Shown here: piece by piece, positions 10,452 through 42,581 of the stretch
Layout of the letters: the number at the start of each line of letters is the position of its first letter
How positions within the stretch are numbered: the first letter of the stretch is position 1
From: a virus
Lineage: Duplodnaviria; Heunggongvirae; Uroviricota; Caudoviricetes
Length of the DNA stretch: 42,581 nucleotides
Reading direction: 5' to 3' (one strand)
Virus record (IMG/VR): IMGVR_UViG_3300045988_019953
Location: 1-42,581 of that record
The notes under the pieces: generated by a model
The model's database searches: none
Told to the model about the DNA's origin: nothing
The model's input: the letters and a program-made list of their open reading frames with translations, nothing else
Program-made: the position numbers and the translations under genes

Positions 10452-10997
10452 ATGAAGCTGAAACTCAAGCAGCCATCGCCAGAGGTGGTGCAAGCTGCGC
10501 ATGAAGAAGCTGTTAGCGCAAACCGTCGCCGTAGGCGACCACGCGGTAAACAGAGCCTTTATCAATCATCCCGTAATTCCGCCGCATTGTGGGACCCGGA
10601 CTATTGCGACGAACTGATTCGTTTCTTCGACCGCACGTCATGGGAACTTGTGCCCACGTCTAAGGGTGACGAACGCCCGCTGATTCAGGATAAGCCGCCG
10701 TCGCTGGCCCGCTTCGCCTTACACATCGGCGTCACTATCCCGATCATCAAGCTGTGGCTGCGTGAGATTCCAGCTTTTGCAGAAGCATATGAGACAGCAC
10801 AGGCGCTGGAAGAGGCGTATTTCACTGAGACAGGGGCCGCGGGTATCTCCGCTACGTTTGCTGCCGCGAAGCTGGGCCTCGGTAAAGAGAAACCAGTTGA
10901 ATCTACAGAAGAGACAGCACCGACTGAGATTATTTTCAGTGTCGCGGAGCCTGTAGGTAAAATCGTAACAACGAATATGGGCGAGGTAGAGGAATGA
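10452..10997 (+). CDS. terS: Putative terminase small subunit
   Basis: Directly upstream of and overlapping terL; ATG 10452 after AAGGGGA; assignment by position, no motif verified. Confidence 0.5.
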   Translation: MKLKLKQPSPEVVQAAHEEAVSANRRRRRPRGKQSLYQSSRNSAALWDPDYCDELIRFFDRTSWELVPTSKGDERPLIQDKPPSLARFALHIGVTIPIIKLWLREIPAFAEAYETAQALEEAYFTETGAAGISATFAAAKLGLGKEKPVESTEETAPTEIIFSVAEPVGKIVTTNMGEVEE

Positions 10998-12244
10998 GTA
11001 TTCAGCTATCCGCGCCACAGGCTTTGTTCCTGAATTGTGACAATAAATACAAAGCATACGTCGGCGGCTTCGGAAGCGGCAAAACATTTGTCGGCTGTCT
11101 CGACCTGCTTACGTTTATGCTTAAGCACCCCGGTACGCGCCTGGGCTACTTCGGCCCGACATACCCGGCCATACGCGACATCTTCTACCCGACATTCGAG
11201 GAAGCGGCTAACCTGCTTGGCCTTGATGTGCTGGTTAAATCCGGCGACAAAGAGGTTGTGGTTACTCGCGGTAAGACGGTGCTCGGAACTGTTATCTGCC
11301 GTTCGATGGATAACCCCGGTTCGATAGTCGGCTTCAAAATCGCGGCTGCGGTAGTGGATGAACTGGACGTATTGAGCCGCGAGAAAGCTGAGCTGGCGTG
11401 GAACAAAATTGTGGCCCGTATGCGTCTGGTTATACCTGGCGTAACTAACCACATCTCTGTCACCACGACACCGGAAGGATTCAAGTTCGTCTACGCCAAG
11501 TTCAAAGAGAACCCGACGCCGAGTTACTCAATGGTGCAGGCTTCTACACACGAGAACGCGCGATTCCTGCCGCCGGATTACATTAGCTCGCTTACAGAGA
11601 CTTACCCGGCGCAACTGATTAACGCATATCTGAACGGTGAGTTCGTCAACCTTACCTCCGGCAGCGTGTATTACGCGTACGACCGCCGTAAGCACCGCAG
11701 CAAAGAGACAATTCATCCGGGCGACACGCTGTACATCGGGCAGGACTTCAACGTTACGAAGAACGCCAGCGCTGTGTACGTGCAGCGTAAAGACGGCTGG
11801 CACGCGGTTGCTGAACTGAAGGGCCTGTTCGATACGCCAGACACCGTGCGTGTAATTACTGAGAAGTGGAAATCGCAGGGCCACCGCATCGTCGTTTACC
11901 CCGATGCCAGCGGCAAGAACCGCAAAACCAACTCAGCATCAATCTCTGATATCGCATTACTCCAGCAGGCCGGGTTCGACGTTCGCGCTAAATCCGCCAA
12001 CCCCCCAGTTAAAGACCGTGTTTTAGCGGTGAATACCGCGCTGGAAAAAGGTAAGCTGTGGGTTAATGACCACTTATGCCCTGAGATAGCCAAGACGCTG
12101 GAGCAGCAGGCATACGATGATAACGGGGAGCCCGCTAAAGATGGCATCATTGACCATATGGCGGATGCTCTCGGCTATCCTGTAGTTTACGAGATGCCGG
12201 TGGTTAAACCAGTAATCAACATCCCGGTGACTTTCGCACTTTAA
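10994..12244 (+). CDS. terL: Terminase large subunit (ATPase plus nuclease)
   Basis: Walker A GGFGSGKT and Walker B-like AAVVDELD; acidic residues in C-terminal region; followed by portal. Confidence 0.85.
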   Translation: MSIQLSAPQALFLNCDNKYKAYVGGFGSGKTFVGCLDLLTFMLKHPGTRLGYFGPTYPAIRDIFYPTFEEAANLLGLDVLVKSGDKEVVVTRGKTVLGTVICRSMDNPGSIVGFKIAAAVVDELDVLSREKAELAWNKIVARMRLVIPGVTNHISVTTTPEGFKFVYAKFKENPTPSYSMVQASTHENARFLPPDYISSLTETYPAQLINAYLNGEFVNLTSGSVYYAYDRRKHRSKETIHPGDTLYIGQDFNVTKNASAVYVQRKDGWHAVAELKGLFDTPDTVRVITEKWKSQGHRIVVYPDASGKNRKTNSASISDIALLQQAGFDVRAKSANPPVKDRVLAVNTALEKGKLWVNDHLCPEIAKTLEQQAYDDNGEPAKDGIIDHMADALGYPVVYEMPVVKPVINIPVTFAL

Positions 12245-22772: not shown

Positions 22773-23003
22773 TTACTCATCAATATTGCTTCGGTATTCC
22801 CGTAACTTCTCCAGACTTTCAATTGCTTCCGCTAAGTCGGTTCCTGTGTCCTTGTGCCCCCGCAAGCCCATACATAATAGCTTCTTCAATGCGTGCTGTA
22901 GCGCCGGGTCCCGGATATCGAAGGCGCGTAGCACATCGTAAACGTCTACAGTCATAGTGCTGCCGTGAGTGTTTGTCATTGTGCGGTTGTATTTTGAAGT
23001 CAT
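22773..23003 (-). CDS. Hypothetical protein (76 aa), last gene of the minus-strand island
   Basis: Track ORF downstream of the island HNH gene. Confidence 0.5.
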   Translation of the reverse strand: MTSKYNRTMTNTHGSTMTVDVYDVLRAFDIRDPALQHALKKLLCMGLRGHKDTGTDLAEAIESLEKLREYRSNIDE

Positions 23004-23012
23004 CTCTAAGCC

Positions 23013-23513
23013 CTATTTATAACCGTTGTTGAATGTTGTCAGCCCGTGGTTTATGTGGAATTTATTGGCTACGGACATGTAAATTCTTTCCGCGAAAGCG
23101 TCCTCTATTCTGTCAAATGTTTTACTAATCTGCTTACCGTTGACAACGGCATACGCTCTCCACTTAGTTTCTCCTTTCCGCGCCACGCCAGTAACTCCAG
23201 ATGTATTATCTTTGCGCCTTTTCACGTTAACCATGTTGTCCCTTCTTGATTTGCAGGACAGGTTTTCAATTCTGTCATCACATGTATCATGGTTAGTGTG
23301 GTCTATGACAAATCCTTTTGGAATCTTGCCGGAGAACATCTCGTACACCACCCTCGACCTTTTAAACTTACGGTTGCCGAACATGACGTACCAATAGCCG
23401 TTTTTACACAAACTCCCGGCAACATCCCCTACATTCACATCGTTACGGCGACATGATTTGACTTTCCAGTATAGGACGCCGTTTTTGTAGCTAAAAACCT
23501 CACTCCAGTCCAT
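23013..23513 (-). CDS. HNH homing endonuclease (HNH plus AP2-like region), copy 1 of 4
   Basis: Motif GFVIDHTNHDTCDDRIENL...NMVNVKRRKDNTSGVTGV shared with ORFs at 34358, 36269, 39992. Confidence 0.8.
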   Translation of the reverse strand: MDWSEVFSYKNGVLYWKVKSCRRNDVNVGDVAGSLCKNGYWYVMFGNRKFKRSRVVYEMFSGKIPKGFVIDHTNHDTCDDRIENLSCKSRRDNMVNVKRRKDNTSGVTGVARKGETKWRAYAVVNGKQISKTFDRIEDAFAERIYMSVANKFHINHGLTTFNNGYK

Positions 23514-23528
23514 CCTTTCACCTACATT

Positions 23529-24683
23529 TTAGTATGTTGATTCGGGGTTTATATCCCGCAGCATTTCAACAGGTATACTTATGCGGGACACCTCACCGTA
23601 TCGCTTATGGTATGTAATCACATTTGCGCTTCTACCGGAATAATAACCTCCTTTACTAGAATACTCATCTTTAGCGGCTAATGTCTGATGTTGCTCGACA
23701 ATTAGAAGATTAGTCTCTTTAACCGCCCTGTGATGAAGGTGGCCTGTATGGACGTAGGTGAACTTACACTGCCCGTACATCTCCCGATACTTACCGATTA
23801 TAGACTGCTCTACCTTAGCAAAGTTAGAGCAATGCCCATGGTGCGCCGAAATCATACAATCCCCGAACTTGTACGCATAATACGGCGATACCTCCCGGTT
23901 AACCTCAACACGAGGCTCGTTTGTGTATACCTCATAGAACATCTCTCTGAGCCACAGAGAAGAACTAAGGTCGTGGTTACCCTCGCAGATAAGAAGTTTA
24001 ACCTTTTTGTGTTTTCGCAAGCACAGCGAAACCGCCAGCTTTATAACCTTAATAGCTGTACGTATCATTTTAAACAAGCGACTATCCGCTGAAAGAATAT
24101 GACCGCTCATAGGGGTCATTGCCTTCATGCCGTCGTAGTGCATCTGGTCGCCTAAGAAATTAATGATACATTCACCACTCTGCGGACTCATGCAAACCGC
24201 ACTGTTGAACCAGTCAACAGCAAGAGATTCCGCGATTGTGGTGTCGTAGTCGTCTCCGCCTTCTTCTTGACACGCCAGCATCCCGATGTGATGGTCAGTT
24301 ATTGTGTAAAGATTTAATAAGTCGTCATCTGTGCCATTTTTGGCCAAAGTGACAGGCTTAAACCTGGGTAAATCTTTTTTCATCTCATCCACAACGGCTT
24401 TCATCAACTCAACCTGACGTTCGGCGTCAGTGTCAGTCTTAACCCATTGCAGTTTAGTGTTGCCGAACTCGTCCACAAGTGACGACGTGCCTTTAATCTT
24501 GTAACCGTCAGGGACGAGGTGGCTAACGTCGCGCCCGTGGCCCACGCCTTTCTTTGCCAGCTTCGCTTTACGGATACGAATAACGCGGTCTGAGATGCCG
24601 TATTTACGGGCGATATCGATATTCTTCATTCCGGCGTTCAATTCTTCCTGTAACTGTTCGTCGGTTATTTTCTTCCGGGCCAT
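23529..24683 (-). CDS. Calcineurin-like metallophosphoesterase with N-terminal HTH
   Basis: Ordered motifs TDHH, GDQMHYDG, EGNHD, HHGH, GHLHH; N-terminal NIDIARKYGISDRVIRIRK is HTH-like; RBS GAGGA. Confidence 0.75.
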   Translation of the reverse strand: MARKKITDEQLQEELNAGMKNIDIARKYGISDRVIRIRKAKLAKKGVGHGRDVSHLVPDGYKIKGTSSLVDEFGNTKLQWVKTDTDAERQVELMKAVVDEMKKDLPRFKPVTLAKNGTDDDLLNLYTITDHHIGMLACQEEGGDDYDTTIAESLAVDWFNSAVCMSPQSGECIINFLGDQMHYDGMKAMTPMSGHILSADSRLFKMIRTAIKVIKLAVSLCLRKHKKVKLLICEGNHDLSSSLWLREMFYEVYTNEPRVEVNREVSPYYAYKFGDCMISAHHGHCSNFAKVEQSIIGKYREMYGQCKFTYVHTGHLHHRAVKETNLLIVEQHQTLAAKDEYSSKGGYYSGRSANVITYHKRYGEVSRISIPVEMLRDINPESTY

Positions 24684-34855: not shown

Positions 34856-36276
34856 TTTTTACCTCTGCGCTTCATGTACTCTAGTAATATGTCTTGTACT
34901 TGCTTTTTCTCGTCGGTACGAGCCGCAACTACCTCATCTAACGTATCTTTAGCAATAATCTTGTAGATAAAAACAGGGCGATTATACCCCGATTGCTTTT
35001 GACGCGTTGGACCTATACGCTCGACAACCTGCAAATAGTGCTCGAGGTTCCAGCCTTGCGAAATAAACGCCAGATGATGGCCGCCGTCCTGTAAATTCAA
35101 ACCATGACCGGCTGACGCAGGGTGAACGCACAAAATCTCGATTTCGCCACGGTTCCACGCCTCCATCTGCTTATTGCCCTTGGCGCCTTTGGCAAACGCC
35201 TGTGCTTGCGGGAATCGCTTAAGGATACGCTCCAGTTCGTGCTTGAACTGATAGGCCACCAGTAACGGCGCGCCCTGTAACTCCTCAACAATTGACTCAA
35301 GAGCATCCAGCTTCGTGTCATGCACTTTCTCCCAGTCTTTGGTTGCTTCGCCGTCTGGCCCCGATACATACACGGCACCGGATGCAATCTGCAAACACTT
35401 CGACGTCTTCGCCGCAGCGTTAGCCGCTTCAACTTCCCCGCTTTCCAGTTCCGCGAATAACTTCTCCTCCATATCGATGTACGTCTGACGCGCTTTCTTC
35501 GGCAGGTCGATTTCAACCGGTACGATAACGGGCGCTTCACAACCGAACCACTCAGCGGCATCAATCGTGAGACTAATGTCCTTCATCTTCTGGTGGATTT
35601 CATTATCTGCGCCAGGGCGTGCGTGATATTCGCGCGCCATAGCAGATTTTCCTTTCTGCACCGAGTTAAACCAGCGGTCGGTGAACGCTGTGTACGAAGA
35701 ACCGAGTCGCTCGCCCGCGTCGATAAACCAGTTCTGCCCCCACAAGTCCTTGAGGCCGTTTGGCGACGGTGTACCGGTCAGGTTGATGAAACGCTTAACC
35801 TTACCGAACGCCACTTTACTAAGCGCCTTTGCCCTCTTGCTGCCTCCCGAACGGCTACGGAATGACTTGAGCTTCGTGCTCTCATCGGCAACGATAGCCG
35901 TAAAAGGCCAGTCGTCTTTGCCGTAGTAGTCAATGAGCCACTCGATAACTTCGTAGTTGGTACACACCACGTTAGCGTCTGACTCCAGCGCCGAGATACG
36001 GCGCTTCTCCGAACCTGTTGCATCTACGACACTCAAACAAGGGAACCGCCATTTCTCTTGTTCAGATGGCCACGTGCCAGATGCAACGCGCAACGGGGCG
36101 AGGATTAACACGCGGTCCTCTTCCGTAAGCTGTCCGTTGCGAAACAGGCGGTTTAAAGTCCACAGGACGCTACCAGTCTTCCCGGCGCCCATGCTCGCCC
36201 AAATATTACAGCGATGATGTCGCAACATGAACGAGGTCATGAGCTTCTGGTACTCGCGCCTTTGAAACTTACTCAT
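34852..36276 (-). CDS. Superfamily 2 DEAD/DEAH-type DNA helicase
   Basis: Walker A SMGAGKTG, DEST box (IVADESTK), C-terminal helicase-type region. Confidence 0.8.
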   Translation of the reverse strand: MSKFQRREYQKLMTSFMLRHHRCNIWASMGAGKTGSVLWTLNRLFRNGQLTEEDRVLILAPLRVASGTWPSEQEKWRFPCLSVVDATGSEKRRISALESDANVVCTNYEVIEWLIDYYGKDDWPFTAIVADESTKLKSFRSRSGGSKRAKALSKVAFGKVKRFINLTGTPSPNGLKDLWGQNWFIDAGERLGSSYTAFTDRWFNSVQKGKSAMAREYHARPGADNEIHQKMKDISLTIDAAEWFGCEAPVIVPVEIDLPKKARQTYIDMEEKLFAELESGEVEAANAAAKTSKCLQIASGAVYVSGPDGEATKDWEKVHDTKLDALESIVEELQGAPLLVAYQFKHELERILKRFPQAQAFAKGAKGNKQMEAWNRGEIEILCVHPASAGHGLNLQDGGHHLAFISQGWNLEHYLQVVERIGPTRQKQSGYNRPVFIYKIIAKDTLDEVVAARTDEKKQVQDILLEYMKRRGKK

Positions 36277-36763
36277 TGGGTCGTATTCCTTTGTCTAATG
36301 TTTCAAGTGCCGATACCCTGGCGGCTATTGCTTCTTCTCTTGTAGAGTAATAACCTAAATGCTTCTTTATTCCGTCAATAGTCATATACGCGGCCCATTT
36401 GTTATGCGACTCTCGCCACCTGACGCCAGGAAAGCCGCTTTTATTACTCGACCTAATTTTCTGCCATCCAGCTTTTGCGACGTTACCTTGTTGTGTCACT
36501 AACTGTAGATTTTCCAATCGGTTATCATCGTACACGCCATTTATGTGGTCAATTTGCATTCCTTCTGGAATCTTGCCGTTGTGCATCTCCCAGACTATTC
36601 TATGTGCTTGGTATATTTTACCTTTGAACTTAATACGCCTATGCCCCTTGTTTACCGAGCTTCCTGCTGTACTGCCTACCGATACTCTCGGCCTCGGTCT
36701 TACTCGCCAAATGAGGGCGCCGTTGTCGTAGGTGAATATCCTACCCCATGCTATTTCACACAT
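36269..36763 (-). CDS. HNH homing endonuclease, copy 3 of 4
   Basis: Motif MQIDHINGVYDDNRLENL plus KSGFPGVRW; RBS AAGGA. Confidence 0.8.
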   Translation of the reverse strand: MCEIAWGRIFTYDNGALIWRVRPRPRVSVGSTAGSSVNKGHRRIKFKGKIYQAHRIVWEMHNGKIPEGMQIDHINGVYDDNRLENLQLVTQQGNVAKAGWQKIRSSNKSGFPGVRWRESHNKWAAYMTIDGIKKHLGYYSTREEAIAARVSALETLDKGIRPNE

Positions 36764-36942
36764 AATACTAATTCCTTACGCCCGAACGCCGTAACGTTTC
36801 CGGTTACATCTTCGATAACCAGTTTACCGTTCGACTCGACGAACACCGTATCAACGGCAACAGGACGACGGGTCTTAACGTTGAAAATCATGTCGCCAGG
36901 TACGATGTCACGTGCTGGTTTGCGGTCGTATTCGTGTTTCAT
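36751..36942 (-). CDS. Hypothetical protein (63 aa)
   Basis: Track ORF with RBS AAGGA; first gene after minus-strand promoter at 36976-37004. Confidence 0.45.
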   Translation of the reverse strand: MKHEYDRKPARDIVPGDMIFNVKTRRPVAVDTVFVESNGKLVIEDVTGNVTAFGRKELVLCVK

Positions 36943-37679: not shown

Positions 37680-37811
37680 TCATTCCAGCACCCACAGATA
37701 AATTGCGATTAACAGGCCCAATACGGCTGCCATCATGCCGTATTGGGCCTCGTGACAGTAGACACCGGCAGCAAATCCCGCCAGTACCGCGATAATCAGT
37801 TTACTTAGCAT
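37680..37811 (-). CDS. Small membrane protein (43 aa)
   Basis: Manual translation MLSKLIIAVLAGFAAGVYC...; start overlaps polymerase 3-prime end; below track threshold. Confidence 0.35.
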   Translation of the reverse strand: MLSKLIIAVLAGFAAGVYCHEAQYGMMAAVLGLLIAIYLWVLE

Positions 37812-39999
37812 AACGTTTTAACTCCTGACCTTCTGCTACAAGAGGGAACCCCTCAGCCCATTCCGGTAATTCGCACATCAACCGCTCAAGTTCAGCCACC
37901 GTGTAATCCGCCGTGTCTGGAGTTTCACATACCAGTTCATCGTGTACCGAAAGCACGATGGGGTACCCGCCACCCTCAACATTAATCATCGCATATGCTA
38001 GTAAATCACGGCACAGTGCCTGGACCAGGTTTTCACAGGCTTTGCCGCCGTGTGTGTACAGGGTGGTCCATTGACGGGTTAACGGGTGTTCGCCTTGATA
38101 CTTTATTCGCACATTCGTGTTCACCCGTCCGTCTTCGTCTGTTTCCTTTGTCACACTAACGCCGATTCCCGGATACGAGAGGATACGGCCTGACGGCAAC
38201 TCCATACACAACCACCAACCTGGAACCTTCCTACCGGATGAATCAAATTCTACAGTACGCCATATGCGGATAGCCCTTTCCCCGTTCCTGCGCAAGTGTG
38301 CCCCTGCCCAAAATTCACGACCAGGATTACGCACAGCGGCTAAAATTCCATCTTTAAGGTCACGCCAGAACGCTACTGTTTCGGGGTGTGACTCGCGCCA
38401 CATACGCTTGATAGCATCACAAGTACGCCACACTTTCTTATCGAGGATATACGATGGTCGGTCATCCTTTTCACCCGGATGCGGCGGTCGCTTTGCTTCC
38501 TGGATACGCGCCCACTCATAGCCACGTGCGGTAGCAGCCCATATGTGGTCGGGGAATGTACCGTCCATTGTTTTTGCCATCTCAATAAGGTCGAGGCCTA
38601 AGTTTTTAGCGAACGTAACGAACGCTCCGACACCCCCCTCATAGCCGAGGCCAAGCTCGCAAGCCTTGCCTATCTGTCTGATTTCCTTGAAGTTTTTCTT
38701 AATGTCATTGGGGTCCATGCCGAACATCTTGCCTGCGGTTACGCAGTAAATATCCAGTCCGGCGCGGAACGTATCAAGCGCGGTTTCTTCGCCCGCCAGC
38801 CACGCTAAACCACGGCCTTCTACGTTAGAGTAATCGGCGACGACAAACTTATGCCCGGCTTCCGGGATAATGCAGCTACGGACCGTCGATGCCGTCAGCT
38901 TGGCTACATCAAAACGGCGATGCGCGCGGCCCTTAAGTAACGCTGAAATGCCTTTATCCAGTTCATCATCGTGATAGTAACCGCGCGCCAGGTTCTGCGG
39001 CTGGAAGCCTTTACCGGCCCATCGCAGAGTTCGTTTTGCCCCGCCGTACTGCAAGCAACCGCGACGGCGGTCGTCCGACGAGCGACCTAACAGAAGCGGG
39101 TTATATTTCGTTGACGCGGTAGACGCTGCCCCGAGTCGCATCTCGATAATCGTGCGGGCGTCGTCAGGTAAATCATCATCCGCCAACAGGTCGTTAAGCG
39201 TAGACTTCTGCGCGTTGTGGATGCGGTGCGCTGGCGCAAGTTCACGCAGAATCGGCAGAAAATCCTTACCAGTAAGCGAGCCGCCGTATTTGCGTTGGGC
39301 TTCTTCCTGTAACTGGGCCTTGTGATTCTCCACGGCTTCAATCGCGGCTTCCGCTAGTGCGACGTCAACCTTAAACCCGCGGTCGTTGATTAACTGGTCC
39401 AGTTCCAGTACACGGTCCTCGAACTCGGAGTTACCCCAACGCGGCAGCTTATGGAAGACTTCACGCATCGCAGTGATGTCGCTCACAGCGTACTTGATGA
39501 ACAGCGCCCACTCGTCCGGGTGCGTTTCGGCGGTGTAGCGGCGAATTTTGTAGTTCTTCGGTGTCGGTTTAGAGAAACGCTTAATCAGCGCCTTGCCGCG
39601 TTTATCTTTCGCGTTGTCCGCAGATACGCCCAGCACTTCACACAGCGCATCAAGCGAACCAGGCAGCGCGTGACGAAACGCCCAAATCATAGTATCAATA
39701 GTGTTACTTACCGGAATATCAAAACCCCAGCAGTGCTTCATGATGAGTCTGTCGAACATTAAAAAGTTATGGCCCACGATTTTCATACGTCCACGCATAA
39801 CATTACGGAGAGCCACACGGAGGCTTATCGGCATTACTGATTCGGAAGTGCAATCCCATACTTCTACAGGACCGTCATCAACAGCATACGTACAAATTAT
39901 GACCTCTGTCGTTGGGTGCTCCGCATACGCATACGACCCGACTTTCTTTAAGTCTGCTTCGGAGAATGTCTCGGTATCCAGGTACAATAAACTAGTCAT
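37801..39999 (-). CDS. DNA polymerase, family A, with N-terminal 3-5 exonuclease domain
   Basis: Exo motif LYLDTET; pol motif A DYSNVEGR; motif C SVHDELV; RBS AAGGA; 732 aa. Confidence 0.9.
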   Translation of the reverse strand: MTSLLYLDTETFSEADLKKVGSYAYAEHPTTEVIICTYAVDDGPVEVWDCTSESVMPISLRVALRNVMRGRMKIVGHNFLMFDRLIMKHCWGFDIPVSNTIDTMIWAFRHALPGSLDALCEVLGVSADNAKDKRGKALIKRFSKPTPKNYKIRRYTAETHPDEWALFIKYAVSDITAMREVFHKLPRWGNSEFEDRVLELDQLINDRGFKVDVALAEAAIEAVENHKAQLQEEAQRKYGGSLTGKDFLPILRELAPAHRIHNAQKSTLNDLLADDDLPDDARTIIEMRLGAASTASTKYNPLLLGRSSDDRRRGCLQYGGAKRTLRWAGKGFQPQNLARGYYHDDELDKGISALLKGRAHRRFDVAKLTASTVRSCIIPEAGHKFVVADYSNVEGRGLAWLAGEETALDTFRAGLDIYCVTAGKMFGMDPNDIKKNFKEIRQIGKACELGLGYEGGVGAFVTFAKNLGLDLIEMAKTMDGTFPDHIWAATARGYEWARIQEAKRPPHPGEKDDRPSYILDKKVWRTCDAIKRMWRESHPETVAFWRDLKDGILAAVRNPGREFWAGAHLRRNGERAIRIWRTVEFDSSGRKVPGWWLCMELPSGRILSYPGIGVSVTKETDEDGRVNTNVRIKYQGEHPLTRQWTTLYTHGGKACENLVQALCRDLLAYAMINVEGGGYPIVLSVHDELVCETPDTADYTVAELERLMCELPEWAEGFPLVAEGQELKRYAK

Positions 40000-40465
40000 G
40001 GCAATAAAATTCCTTATGCAGTTTTTCTCTTAATTTCTTTACAGCGCTTTCCGCTTCTTCAAGAGTTCCGTAGCTACCAGCGTTATAACTTTTGTAGTTA
40101 AAATGTACACGCCCATAAAATCGGTTGCCGTTTTTAACTACTCCCTTAACCCCCGTTCTAGCTCCCTTATTTTTAGCGTTTCGCACATTATCCGCTGTGG
40201 TTGCTTTCCTTAGGTTAGAAATCCTATTGTCTAACCTGTCACGGTTTATATGGTCAAGAGGCCCCTCAGGCCATTCGCCGTAGTCGAAAAACCAAGCAAG
40301 CCTGTGGGCCATATAGTATCTACCCATATAAGGTATGCGCCAGTATCCGCTACTATTAATACATCCCGCAATGTCTCCGGGTTTCCCTCGTCTGTATGTA
40401 GGTTGTATCCATGTGAATATTCCGGTTTCTCGGTTATAGCTAAGAAAATCTTTTATATGTTCCAT
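39992..40465 (-). CDS. HNH homing endonuclease, copy 4 of 4
   Basis: Motif LDHINRDRLDNRISNL plus ARTGVKGV; ATG 40463-40465 after GGAG preferred over track TTG 40489. Confidence 0.8.
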   Translation of the reverse strand: MEHIKDFLSYNRETGIFTWIQPTYRRGKPGDIAGCINSSGYWRIPYMGRYYMAHRLAWFFDYGEWPEGPLDHINRDRLDNRISNLRKATTADNVRNAKNKGARTGVKGVVKNGNRFYGRVHFNYKSYNAGSYGTLEEAESAVKKLREKLHKEFYCHD

Positions 40466-40476
40466 TCTGACTCCGG

Positions 40477-40500
40477 TAAAAAGGCCCAATGAAGGGCCTT
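40477..40500 (-). terminator. Terminator-like hairpin AAGGCCC-AATGAA-GGGCCTT with T tract on minus strand
   Basis: 7-bp stem; TTTT follows on minus strand; between SSB-like gene and HNH/polymerase. Confidence 0.5.
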
Positions 40501-42504: not shown

Positions 42505-42581
42505 TGGTCAATTAAATGCCGAGTTTTATGTTCGCAGTGCATAGCCCACCCATACATCGACTCGAAGACATAAAAGTCTGG
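42505..42581. repeat. Terminal direct repeat, right copy (identical to 1-77)
   Basis: Exact 77/77 identity with window start. Confidence 0.9.

Follow-up and report, generated by a model that had tools for sequence, protein, structure and literature searches.

Why does a phage genome of about 42.5 kb carry four related HNH endonuclease genes, each set against a gene of DNA metabolism? The genome is that of the tailed virus (Duplodnaviria; Heunggongvirae; Uroviricota; Caudoviricetes) in IMG/VR virus record IMGVR_UViG_3300045988_019953, and 'the window' below means this whole stretch, positions 1 to 42,581, of 42,581 nucleotides (nt). The genes, all on the minus strand, are HNH1 (23013–23513; 166 amino acids, aa), HNH2 (34358–34855; 165 aa), HNH3 (36269–36763; 164 aa) and HNH4 (39992–40465; 157 aa). 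An earlier note, made from the sequence alone, had placed four paralogous HNH endonuclease genes of homing type at these positions; all four are present, and they are paralogs of one another at 26–38% aa identity. These open reading frames (ORFs) are most simply read as free-standing genes for homing endonucleases of the HNH_3 (I-HmuI-like) class whose C-terminal domain is of AP2 type; judging from sequence comparisons, we put the probability that they are active in homing now, or were until recently, at about 0.8.

The window is a complete genome of a Kagunavirus-like coliphage, subfamily Guernseyvirinae. Positions 1–77 and 42505–42581 are identical, an exact 77-nt prefix/suffix overlap such as circularised assemblies usually show (k-mer 77); the genome therefore measures about 42,504 bp and its four HNH genes are the full count. 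Neither a tblastn search of all four genes against the window, which revealed no fifth copy, nor a Pfam search of ten other window ORFs, which revealed no other HNH gene, added to this number. The replication region matched 466 phage records by megablast, mainly Salmonella Jerseyvirus and Escherichia Kagunavirus, and overall the genome is closest to Escherichia phage EP-B-K_E2, which covers 75% of its first 24.9 kb at 91.6% identity.

Protein family and gene arrangement

Each of the four proteins matched Pfam HNH_3 (PF13392) above its gathering cut-off of 24.8 bits (HNH1 to HNH4: 58.2, 33.6, 75.7 and 53.9 bits; E = 6e-16, 3e-8, 2e-21 and 1e-14), as well as PHROG 99, 'HNH endonuclease' (E = 5e-50, for HNH1, to 1e-57), and in tblastn comparisons inside the window each found the other three (E = 1e-13 to 4e-25). 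The shared core that had been given as IDH.N...DNR..NL proved approximately right, its real form being [IL]DH.N-x4-D[ND]R..NL, with DDR in HNH1 and LDH in HNH4. The best solved relative of a profile built from the four proteins was I-HmuI (1U3E; E = 3.5e-7), and similarity in fold to a solved member of the HNH_3 family was confirmed. Residues D71, H72, N84 and N93 (HNH1 numbering) do not vary among the four proteins and correspond in the alignment to D74, H75, N87 and N96 of I-HmuI; the catalytic D-H...N...N set is thus retained in every copy.

The AP2-like segment ascribed to the proteins is less evenly documented. Pfam AP2 scored 24.7 bits in HNH3 and 18.7 bits in HNH2, both below the cut-off of 33.3, and found no match in HNH1 or HNH4. 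Profiles of the family nonetheless matched solved AP2 domains (E = 0.0019 and 0.0012), and a structure model of HNH4 ends in an AP2 fold, a three-stranded sheet plus helix. An AP2 domain is therefore shown by modelled fold in HNH4 only, and probable from sequence similarity in HNH1, HNH2 and HNH3; overall, the HNH-AP2 architecture holds.

The genes are tightly fitted among their neighbours, of which the helicase, PolA and exonuclease genes and the 63-codon ORF are likewise on the minus strand, and the overlaps with neighbouring start or stop codons that had been described are all there. HNH2 and HNH3 lie on either side of a SNF2-family DNA helicase gene (34852–36276): the ATG of HNH2 shares the sequence ATGA (34852–34855) with the helicase TGA, while HNH3 overlaps the helicase start by 8 nt (36269–36276) and, with its own start, overlaps an upstream 63-codon ORF (36751–36942) by 13 nt. 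HNH4 overlaps the start of the gene for a family A DNA polymerase (PolA; 37801–39999), again by 8 nt (39992–39999). Three of the four genes thus stand beside helicase or polymerase genes, as claimed, but the fourth is no outsider: HNH1 lies between a 76-codon ORF and an SbcD/Mre11-like DNA repair exonuclease gene (23529–24683; 384 aa), and so it too adjoins a gene of DNA metabolism. An Rfam search of the window gave no match to a group I or II intron or to any other family, and we therefore regard the HNH genes as free-standing; the window has no tRNA gene either. Their G+C content, 42–45% (43.7% for HNH1), compares with 50.4% for the genome and 53% for the helicase and PolA genes.

Distribution of the genes among related phages

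We searched each gene with its 500-nt flanks against 50,697 phage records, counting as carriers those records in which at least 80% of the query was covered; the counts that follow depend on such megablast coverage thresholds. The same gene at the same site was found in 115 of 393 matching records for HNH1, eight of 451 for HNH3 and six of 154 for HNH4, and at the DNA level none of the 514 records matching at the HNH2 site carries that gene. HNH-free alleles are therefore present at all four sites, and none of the genes is universal. The HNH1 carriers among the matches listed are Salmonella phages, plus BUCT823 as the sole Escherichia phage with the whole stretch.

For a detailed comparison we used 14 relatives, comprising eight complete genomes and six replication-region pieces, whose ORFs were searched with the four-gene profile and whose neighbouring genes were named by blastp. 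The complete relatives carry 0–2 HNH_3 genes each, with none in phage 26YS. Across the 14, such genes occupy no fewer than nine intergenic positions of the replication/recombination module. One is upstream of a DUF2800 exonuclease gene and a second separates that gene from the SSB gene; PolA has a site on each side, one shared with the SSB gene (occupied here by HNH4) and one downstream, and another lies upstream of VRR-NUC. The helicase gene is likewise flanked by two, one separating it from the 63-codon ORF (site F, occupied by HNH3) and one downstream of it (occupied by HNH2). The 76-codon ORF also has two, one towards the SbcD-like exonuclease gene (occupied by HNH1) and one towards the tail tube gene. 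Sites F and G of this map hold differing HNH alleles in different phages, and the alleles of EM1 at the HNH3 site and BUCT823 at the HNH2 site are unrelated to those of the window (42% and 48% aa identity). The mosaicism predicted for related phages is thus real and stronger than expected, involving variable copy number, many sites, differing alleles and, as described below, linked alleles of the neighbouring genes.

Where orthologs exist, they are close and keep their place. Those of HNH1 in BUCT823 and in the Jerseyvirus Kenya-K13 have 97.6% aa identity, and that of HNH3 in Salmonella phage JNS02 has 98.2% aa and 96.6% nucleotide identity. The only close ortholog of HNH2 is a 98% identical protein encoded on a Logan contig assembled from raw reads (L015), at the same site and overlapping the helicase stop; more distant homologs, of 58% (L016) and 48% (BUCT823) identity, also lie directly downstream of a SNF2 helicase gene, the former with a second HNH gene upstream of the helicase. 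All six HNH4 orthologs abut PolA, and several homologs of 42–46% identity in Klebsiella and Salmonella phages of other genera are annotated beside a DNA polymerase gene. In 26YS (L011, about 32185–32253), the HNH1 site keeps the first ~24 nt and the last ~10 nt of the gene; it once held HNH1 and is now a deletion remnant.

Other kinds of genes also occupy site F. In other Kagunavirus genomes the slot holds either a C5 cytosine methyltransferase gene (309–317 aa) or an unrelated 227-aa ORF (examples are L004 2010–2939, L002 4075–5019 and L006 24502–25185).

Linked tracts in neighbouring genes

Sliding identity profiles, computed against 4–9 relatives per site, placed each of the four HNH genes at one end of a discrete patch that reaches into one neighbour only. 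From these comparisons we regard the patches as putative co-conversion tracts at all four genes.

The HNH1 tract (23003–24402) comprises the gene and the 3' ~875 nt of the exonuclease gene. In 100-nt windows, this DNA is 88–98% identical to Kenya-K13 and BUCT823 and, in the exonuclease part, 91–94% identical to 26YS, as opposed to 33–72% for the Kagunavirus sequences L004 and L006, and outside the tract limits the pattern reverses. The tract is thus Jerseyvirus-type DNA set into a Kagunavirus backbone, making the SbcD-like exonuclease gene a chimera, with codons 1–94 of Kagunavirus type and the remainder of Jerseyvirus type. The protein shares 93–98% aa identity with those of Jerseyvirus and BUCT823 versus ~60% with those of other Kagunavirus. 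More generally, the HNH1 and HNH3 orthologs of Jerseyvirus genomes (97.6–98.2% identical) are far closer to their window counterparts than the SSB, tail tube and primase-helicase proteins of the same genomes (64–76%), which indicates exchange between the genera.

The HNH2 tract (34240–35036) spans a 45-codon ORF (34224–34361, minus strand) whose ATG overlaps the HNH2 stop, HNH2 itself and the final 185 nt of the helicase gene. Over this length, nucleotide identity with L015 is 96–100%, compared with 74–94% beyond 35037 and about 90% elsewhere. Phages without HNH2 show 64–74% identity at 34837–34936, and four of five stay at 64–78% up to 35036, the exception being fBC-Eco01, which is back to 96% and 82% before that point.

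At the other end of the same helicase gene lies the allele linked to HNH3 (36040–36276; ~240 nt or about the first 80 codons, with approximate boundaries). Over the 5' ~200 nt (36100–36298), identity drops to 66–73% both in phages with an empty site (fBC-Eco01, HSE2, BUCT823) and in EM1 with its other HNH allele, while the carrier JNS02 stays at 86–90% here and at 90–100% within HNH3 itself. The two alleles are visible in the helicase proteins, as ...HHRCNIWASMGAGKTGSVLW versus ...HPRCNIWCGMGGGKTSSTMW.

The PolA 5' allele linked to HNH4 (39740–39999; ~260 nt, about the first 83 codons) separates carriers, at 90–98% identity, from non-carriers, at 42–77%. Just below ~39700, six of nine genomes (two carriers and four non-carriers) are ~89–98% identical, with EM1, BUCT823 and Kenya-K13 more variable or lower. 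In the protein, the allele boundary falls near residue 83, at ...FDRLIMKHCW. On the upstream side the edge is sharp: carriers and non-carriers are alike up to ...GGGCCTTTTTAC, at a terminator-like hairpin (40478–40500, minus strand) that follows the SSB gene and bounds the HNH4 cassette, and diverge immediately after it.

Homing and alternative explanations

Taken from comparative sequence data, the homing interpretation is well supported: the presence/absence polymorphism, the tracts and the intact residues fit the pattern of free-standing homing endonucleases that the earlier note had recognized. Such data make visible the expected outcome of homing, not the act itself; cleavage and the positions of its targets, a preference for nicks over double-strand breaks, and continuing mobility are what we infer. 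As I-HmuI and the T4 Mob genes suggest, each enzyme most likely acts on the HNH-free allele of the gene it adjoins, nicking or cutting it. In a mixed infection with a related phage without the gene, it would recognize a long asymmetric site in that allele, contacting the DNA through its AP2 domain and N-terminal beta-sheet, and would nick or cut at the beta-beta-alpha-metal site; likely targets are the 3' part of the SbcD-like exonuclease gene for HNH1, the 3' end of the helicase gene for HNH2, its 5' end for HNH3 and the 5' end of PolA for HNH4. Repair of the break from the HNH-carrying genome, possibly by the phage's own Enc34/gp2.5-like SSB, DUF2800 PD-(D/E)XK exonuclease, VRR-NUC and SbcD-like exonuclease, would then copy the HNH gene together with a few hundred nt of the neighbour (co-conversion), and the imported segment would presumably be a cleavage-resistant allele.

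Several observations pull the other way. The AP2 domain of HNH1 is suggested only by alignment with the other three proteins, and the tract profiles draw on 4–9 relatives at each site and not on every record. Compared with their orthologs, HNH1, HNH3 and HNH4 have ratios of non-synonymous to synonymous substitution rates (dN/dS) of 0.03–0.05 at dS of 0.15–0.37 (dN/dS 0.03 for HNH1 and 0.05 for HNH3), and HNH2 differs from its ortholog at five sites only. The orthologs are under strong purifying selection, but the dS of HNH1, HNH3 and HNH4 is similar to that of the Kagunavirus backbone, so the patchy distribution may reflect old acquisition and loss as much as recent homing. So low a dN/dS is as well expected of a domesticated nuclease that benefits the phage. 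Finally, site F is a general hot spot for insertion of accessory genes, and ordinary modular recombination could therefore create linked flanking alleles without any nuclease.

It is possible, although we are doubtful, that the genes descend from homing endonucleases and are now kept mainly for helping the phage and not for their own spread, either through cleavage of replication genes in co-infecting relatives (marker exclusion, interference competition) or through a role in replication or recombination; this would overlap with homing and does not exclude it. The long-lasting constraint on the proteins implied by the substitution rates would fit, as would four intact genes translationally coupled into the replication operon, and homing-endonuclease-like nuclease genes have been noted as possible subjects of domestication (PMC10448857). 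However, the majority of close relatives lack any given copy and still replicate, and 26YS lacks all of them; the number per genome is highly variable, 26YS has its deletion remnant, and no copy lies near the terminase or another partner known to use an HNH cofactor. We consider it improbable that the genes are passive cargo, no longer cutting and shuffled, like the methyltransferase genes of the hot spot, by ordinary homologous recombination between conserved flanks, with the divergent linked flanks simply marking module boundaries. In favour of this, site F holds methyltransferase genes or a different HNH gene in other genomes, and mosaic allele swaps also affect genes with no HNH gene nearby, such as a TerL-like ORF (99% versus 39–54% identity to different relatives). 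Against it, D-H...N...N is intact in all four copies and purifying selection is strong, four of four tracts start at the HNH gene and enter only one neighbour, and divergent homologs stay beside the same gene in different phage genera.

That the proteins are instead HNH packaging cofactors associated with the terminase (HK97 gp74-like), or nucleases encoded within introns or inteins, is scarcely credible. It has in its favour the general HNH fold and the presence in relatives of an intein (Hint + LAGLIDADG) in the helicase gene, but the position of the genes and the lack of any intron or intein feature effectively rule it out: all four genes lie at least 10 kb from the TerL-like gene (10994–12244), the nearest at ~10.8 kb, and each is a separate ORF between genes that begins at a start codon of its own, with no intron found by Rfam and with the window PolA (732 aa) and helicase (474 aa) genes uninterrupted and without insertions.

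We tentatively raise the rather doubtful possibility that these four genes are not only selfish passengers and are kept as a set of phage-versus-phage weapons. If so, every enzyme would have its own essential target among the replication and repair genes of co-infecting Guernseyvirinae, cutting it and substituting the carrier's resistant allele; four stacked in one genome, twice the 0–2 of the eight complete relatives, would give a competitive advantage; cross-genus exchanges such as that of the Jerseyvirus-type exonuclease segment would be driven by them; and the strong, long-lasting purifying selection (dN/dS about 0.03) would reflect the benefit.

Neighbouring genes and other features

The helicase (Pfam SNF2-rel_dom, E = 3e-13) shares 91–96% aa identity with those of relatives, and PolA is recognized by Pfam DNA_pol_A (E = 8e-18). 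The SbcD-like exonuclease is annotated in relatives as a DNA repair exonuclease or calcineurin-like phosphoesterase, and Pfam gave no match for the window copy. The 63-codon ORF has a remodelled 3' end in genomes with HNH3. The 45-codon ORF, which begins MNIIAPIPALQKRIKELEEEV..., is the conserved last gene of the operon; it is too short for the ORF-length cut-off used here and is called as a gene in L015. For HNH4 we prefer the ATG at 40465, with GGAG 8 nt upstream, and rejected a longer version with a TTG start (40489), which would lie inside the hairpin at 40478–40500; this hairpin is annotated as a terminator in fBC-Eco01 and was not listed by a simple terminator scan.

Insertions do occur in the replication genes of some relatives. 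The Kenya-K13 helicase (L010 25156–27621) has 821 aa, with a Hint + LAGLIDADG intein from near residue 34. A 1032-aa PolA, found in several relatives (L013 2497–5595, L011 4050–7148 and L009 26171–29269; JNS02 is among the phages that have it), contains an in-frame insert of ~300 aa after residue ~447, for which a Pfam search of the JNS02 protein gave no intein match. Split genes in M01 (L014 2173–7204) and CR01, where PolA and helicase are annotated as 3–6 fragments each, were weighed as signs of further insertions, a reading we discarded: the pieces adjoin one another, run collinear with the intact genes and include no extra HNH gene, and most likely represent frameshift errors in the records.

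Two regions away from the HNH genes also vary among relatives. The protein of the TerL-like ORF is 99% identical to those of L005, L007 and L009 and only 39–54% identical to those of four others, including the closest overall relative, and probably represents a whole-gene allele replacement with no HNH gene nearby. The tailspike gene (32162–34189) shares only its N-terminal ~120–200 residues with relatives (49–88% identity over that part), a pattern that looks like the usual swap of receptor-binding modules.

Comparison with known systems

HNH-AP2 homing endonucleases are an established class, and the window does not hold a new kind of element or mechanism. Our additions are the map of sites, the selection estimates and the four linked tracts, one of which makes the exonuclease gene a cross-genus chimera; the literature searched contained no description of the map or the linked tracts. 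Mosaicism from homing endonucleases and inteins has been noted in Jerseyvirus (PMC8425127), and Kagunavirus phage P differs from phages G and L, its relatives, in an HNH gene among others (PMC5582158); we found that phage P carries an ortholog of HNH4.

Rarely can the influence of free-standing homing endonuclease genes on a small phage genome be seen as cleanly in nature as in the window: its four paralogs are intact, each has a mappable tract in an essential gene, one tract creates a cross-genus chimera, and the occupancy map of its relatives shows every stage, with sites that are empty, occupied, holding another allele, or reduced to a deleted remnant. The HNH-free alleles of PolA, helicase and exonuclease provide concrete substrates on which HNH-AP2 specificity could be studied. 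Kagunavirus and Jerseyvirus phages are, moreover, used in therapy and biocontrol cocktails, whose members could have markers moved between them by such genes.

Counterparts are already annotated as HNH (homing) endonuclease genes in GenBank records of Kagunavirus and Jerseyvirus phages (fBC-Eco01 gp045, EM1 gp66, KMB36, JNS02 and Ent1 gp22). These are orthologs at identical positions, the orthologs of HNH4, HNH3 and HNH1 in those records having 97.5–99.4% aa identity, but their annotation is automatic or descriptive only, and HNH2 has no ortholog in phage records.

The gene for I-HmuI of Bacillus phage SPO1 lies in a group I intron within the DNA polymerase gene, and the protein ends in a helix-turn-helix domain. 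The four proteins of the window share with I-HmuI (PDB 1U3E) the D-H...N...N beta-beta-alpha-metal site, an N-terminal beta-sheet before the nuclease motif, a size of ~160–175 aa and a monomer-type organization. They differ in being products of free-standing genes and in ending in an AP2-type domain, and sequence identity to I-HmuI is only ~23%.

In the T4 Mob family, going by what PMC2790892 says of mobE next to nrdB, free-standing HNH genes likewise sit between essential DNA-metabolism genes, and the same account has them targeting the neighbouring gene of HNH-free relatives and co-converting flanking DNA. Unlike the window genes, they belong to another phage lineage (myovirus) and have a zinc finger in place of AP2 (PMC10448857).

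HNH-AP2 homing endonucleases themselves are reported from phages, cyanobacteria and protists (Magnani et al., 2004, in the form in which PMC10448857 cites it), and in ICP1 and many other phages homing endonuclease genes lie beside polymerase or other essential genes, at exchange boundaries (PMC10448857). With this class, called 'IPA-HNH' in ICP1, the window genes have in common an N-terminal HNH nuclease joined to a C-terminal AP2 DNA-binding domain, a free-standing organization, and enrichment near DNA polymerase and essential genes at the boundaries of exchanged DNA (PMC10448857). The domains of the ICP1 IPA-HNH proteins are too divergent for Pfam HNH_3 (PMC10448857), whereas the four proteins of the window are canonical HNH_3 members whose AP2 domains fall below the Pfam threshold by sequence.

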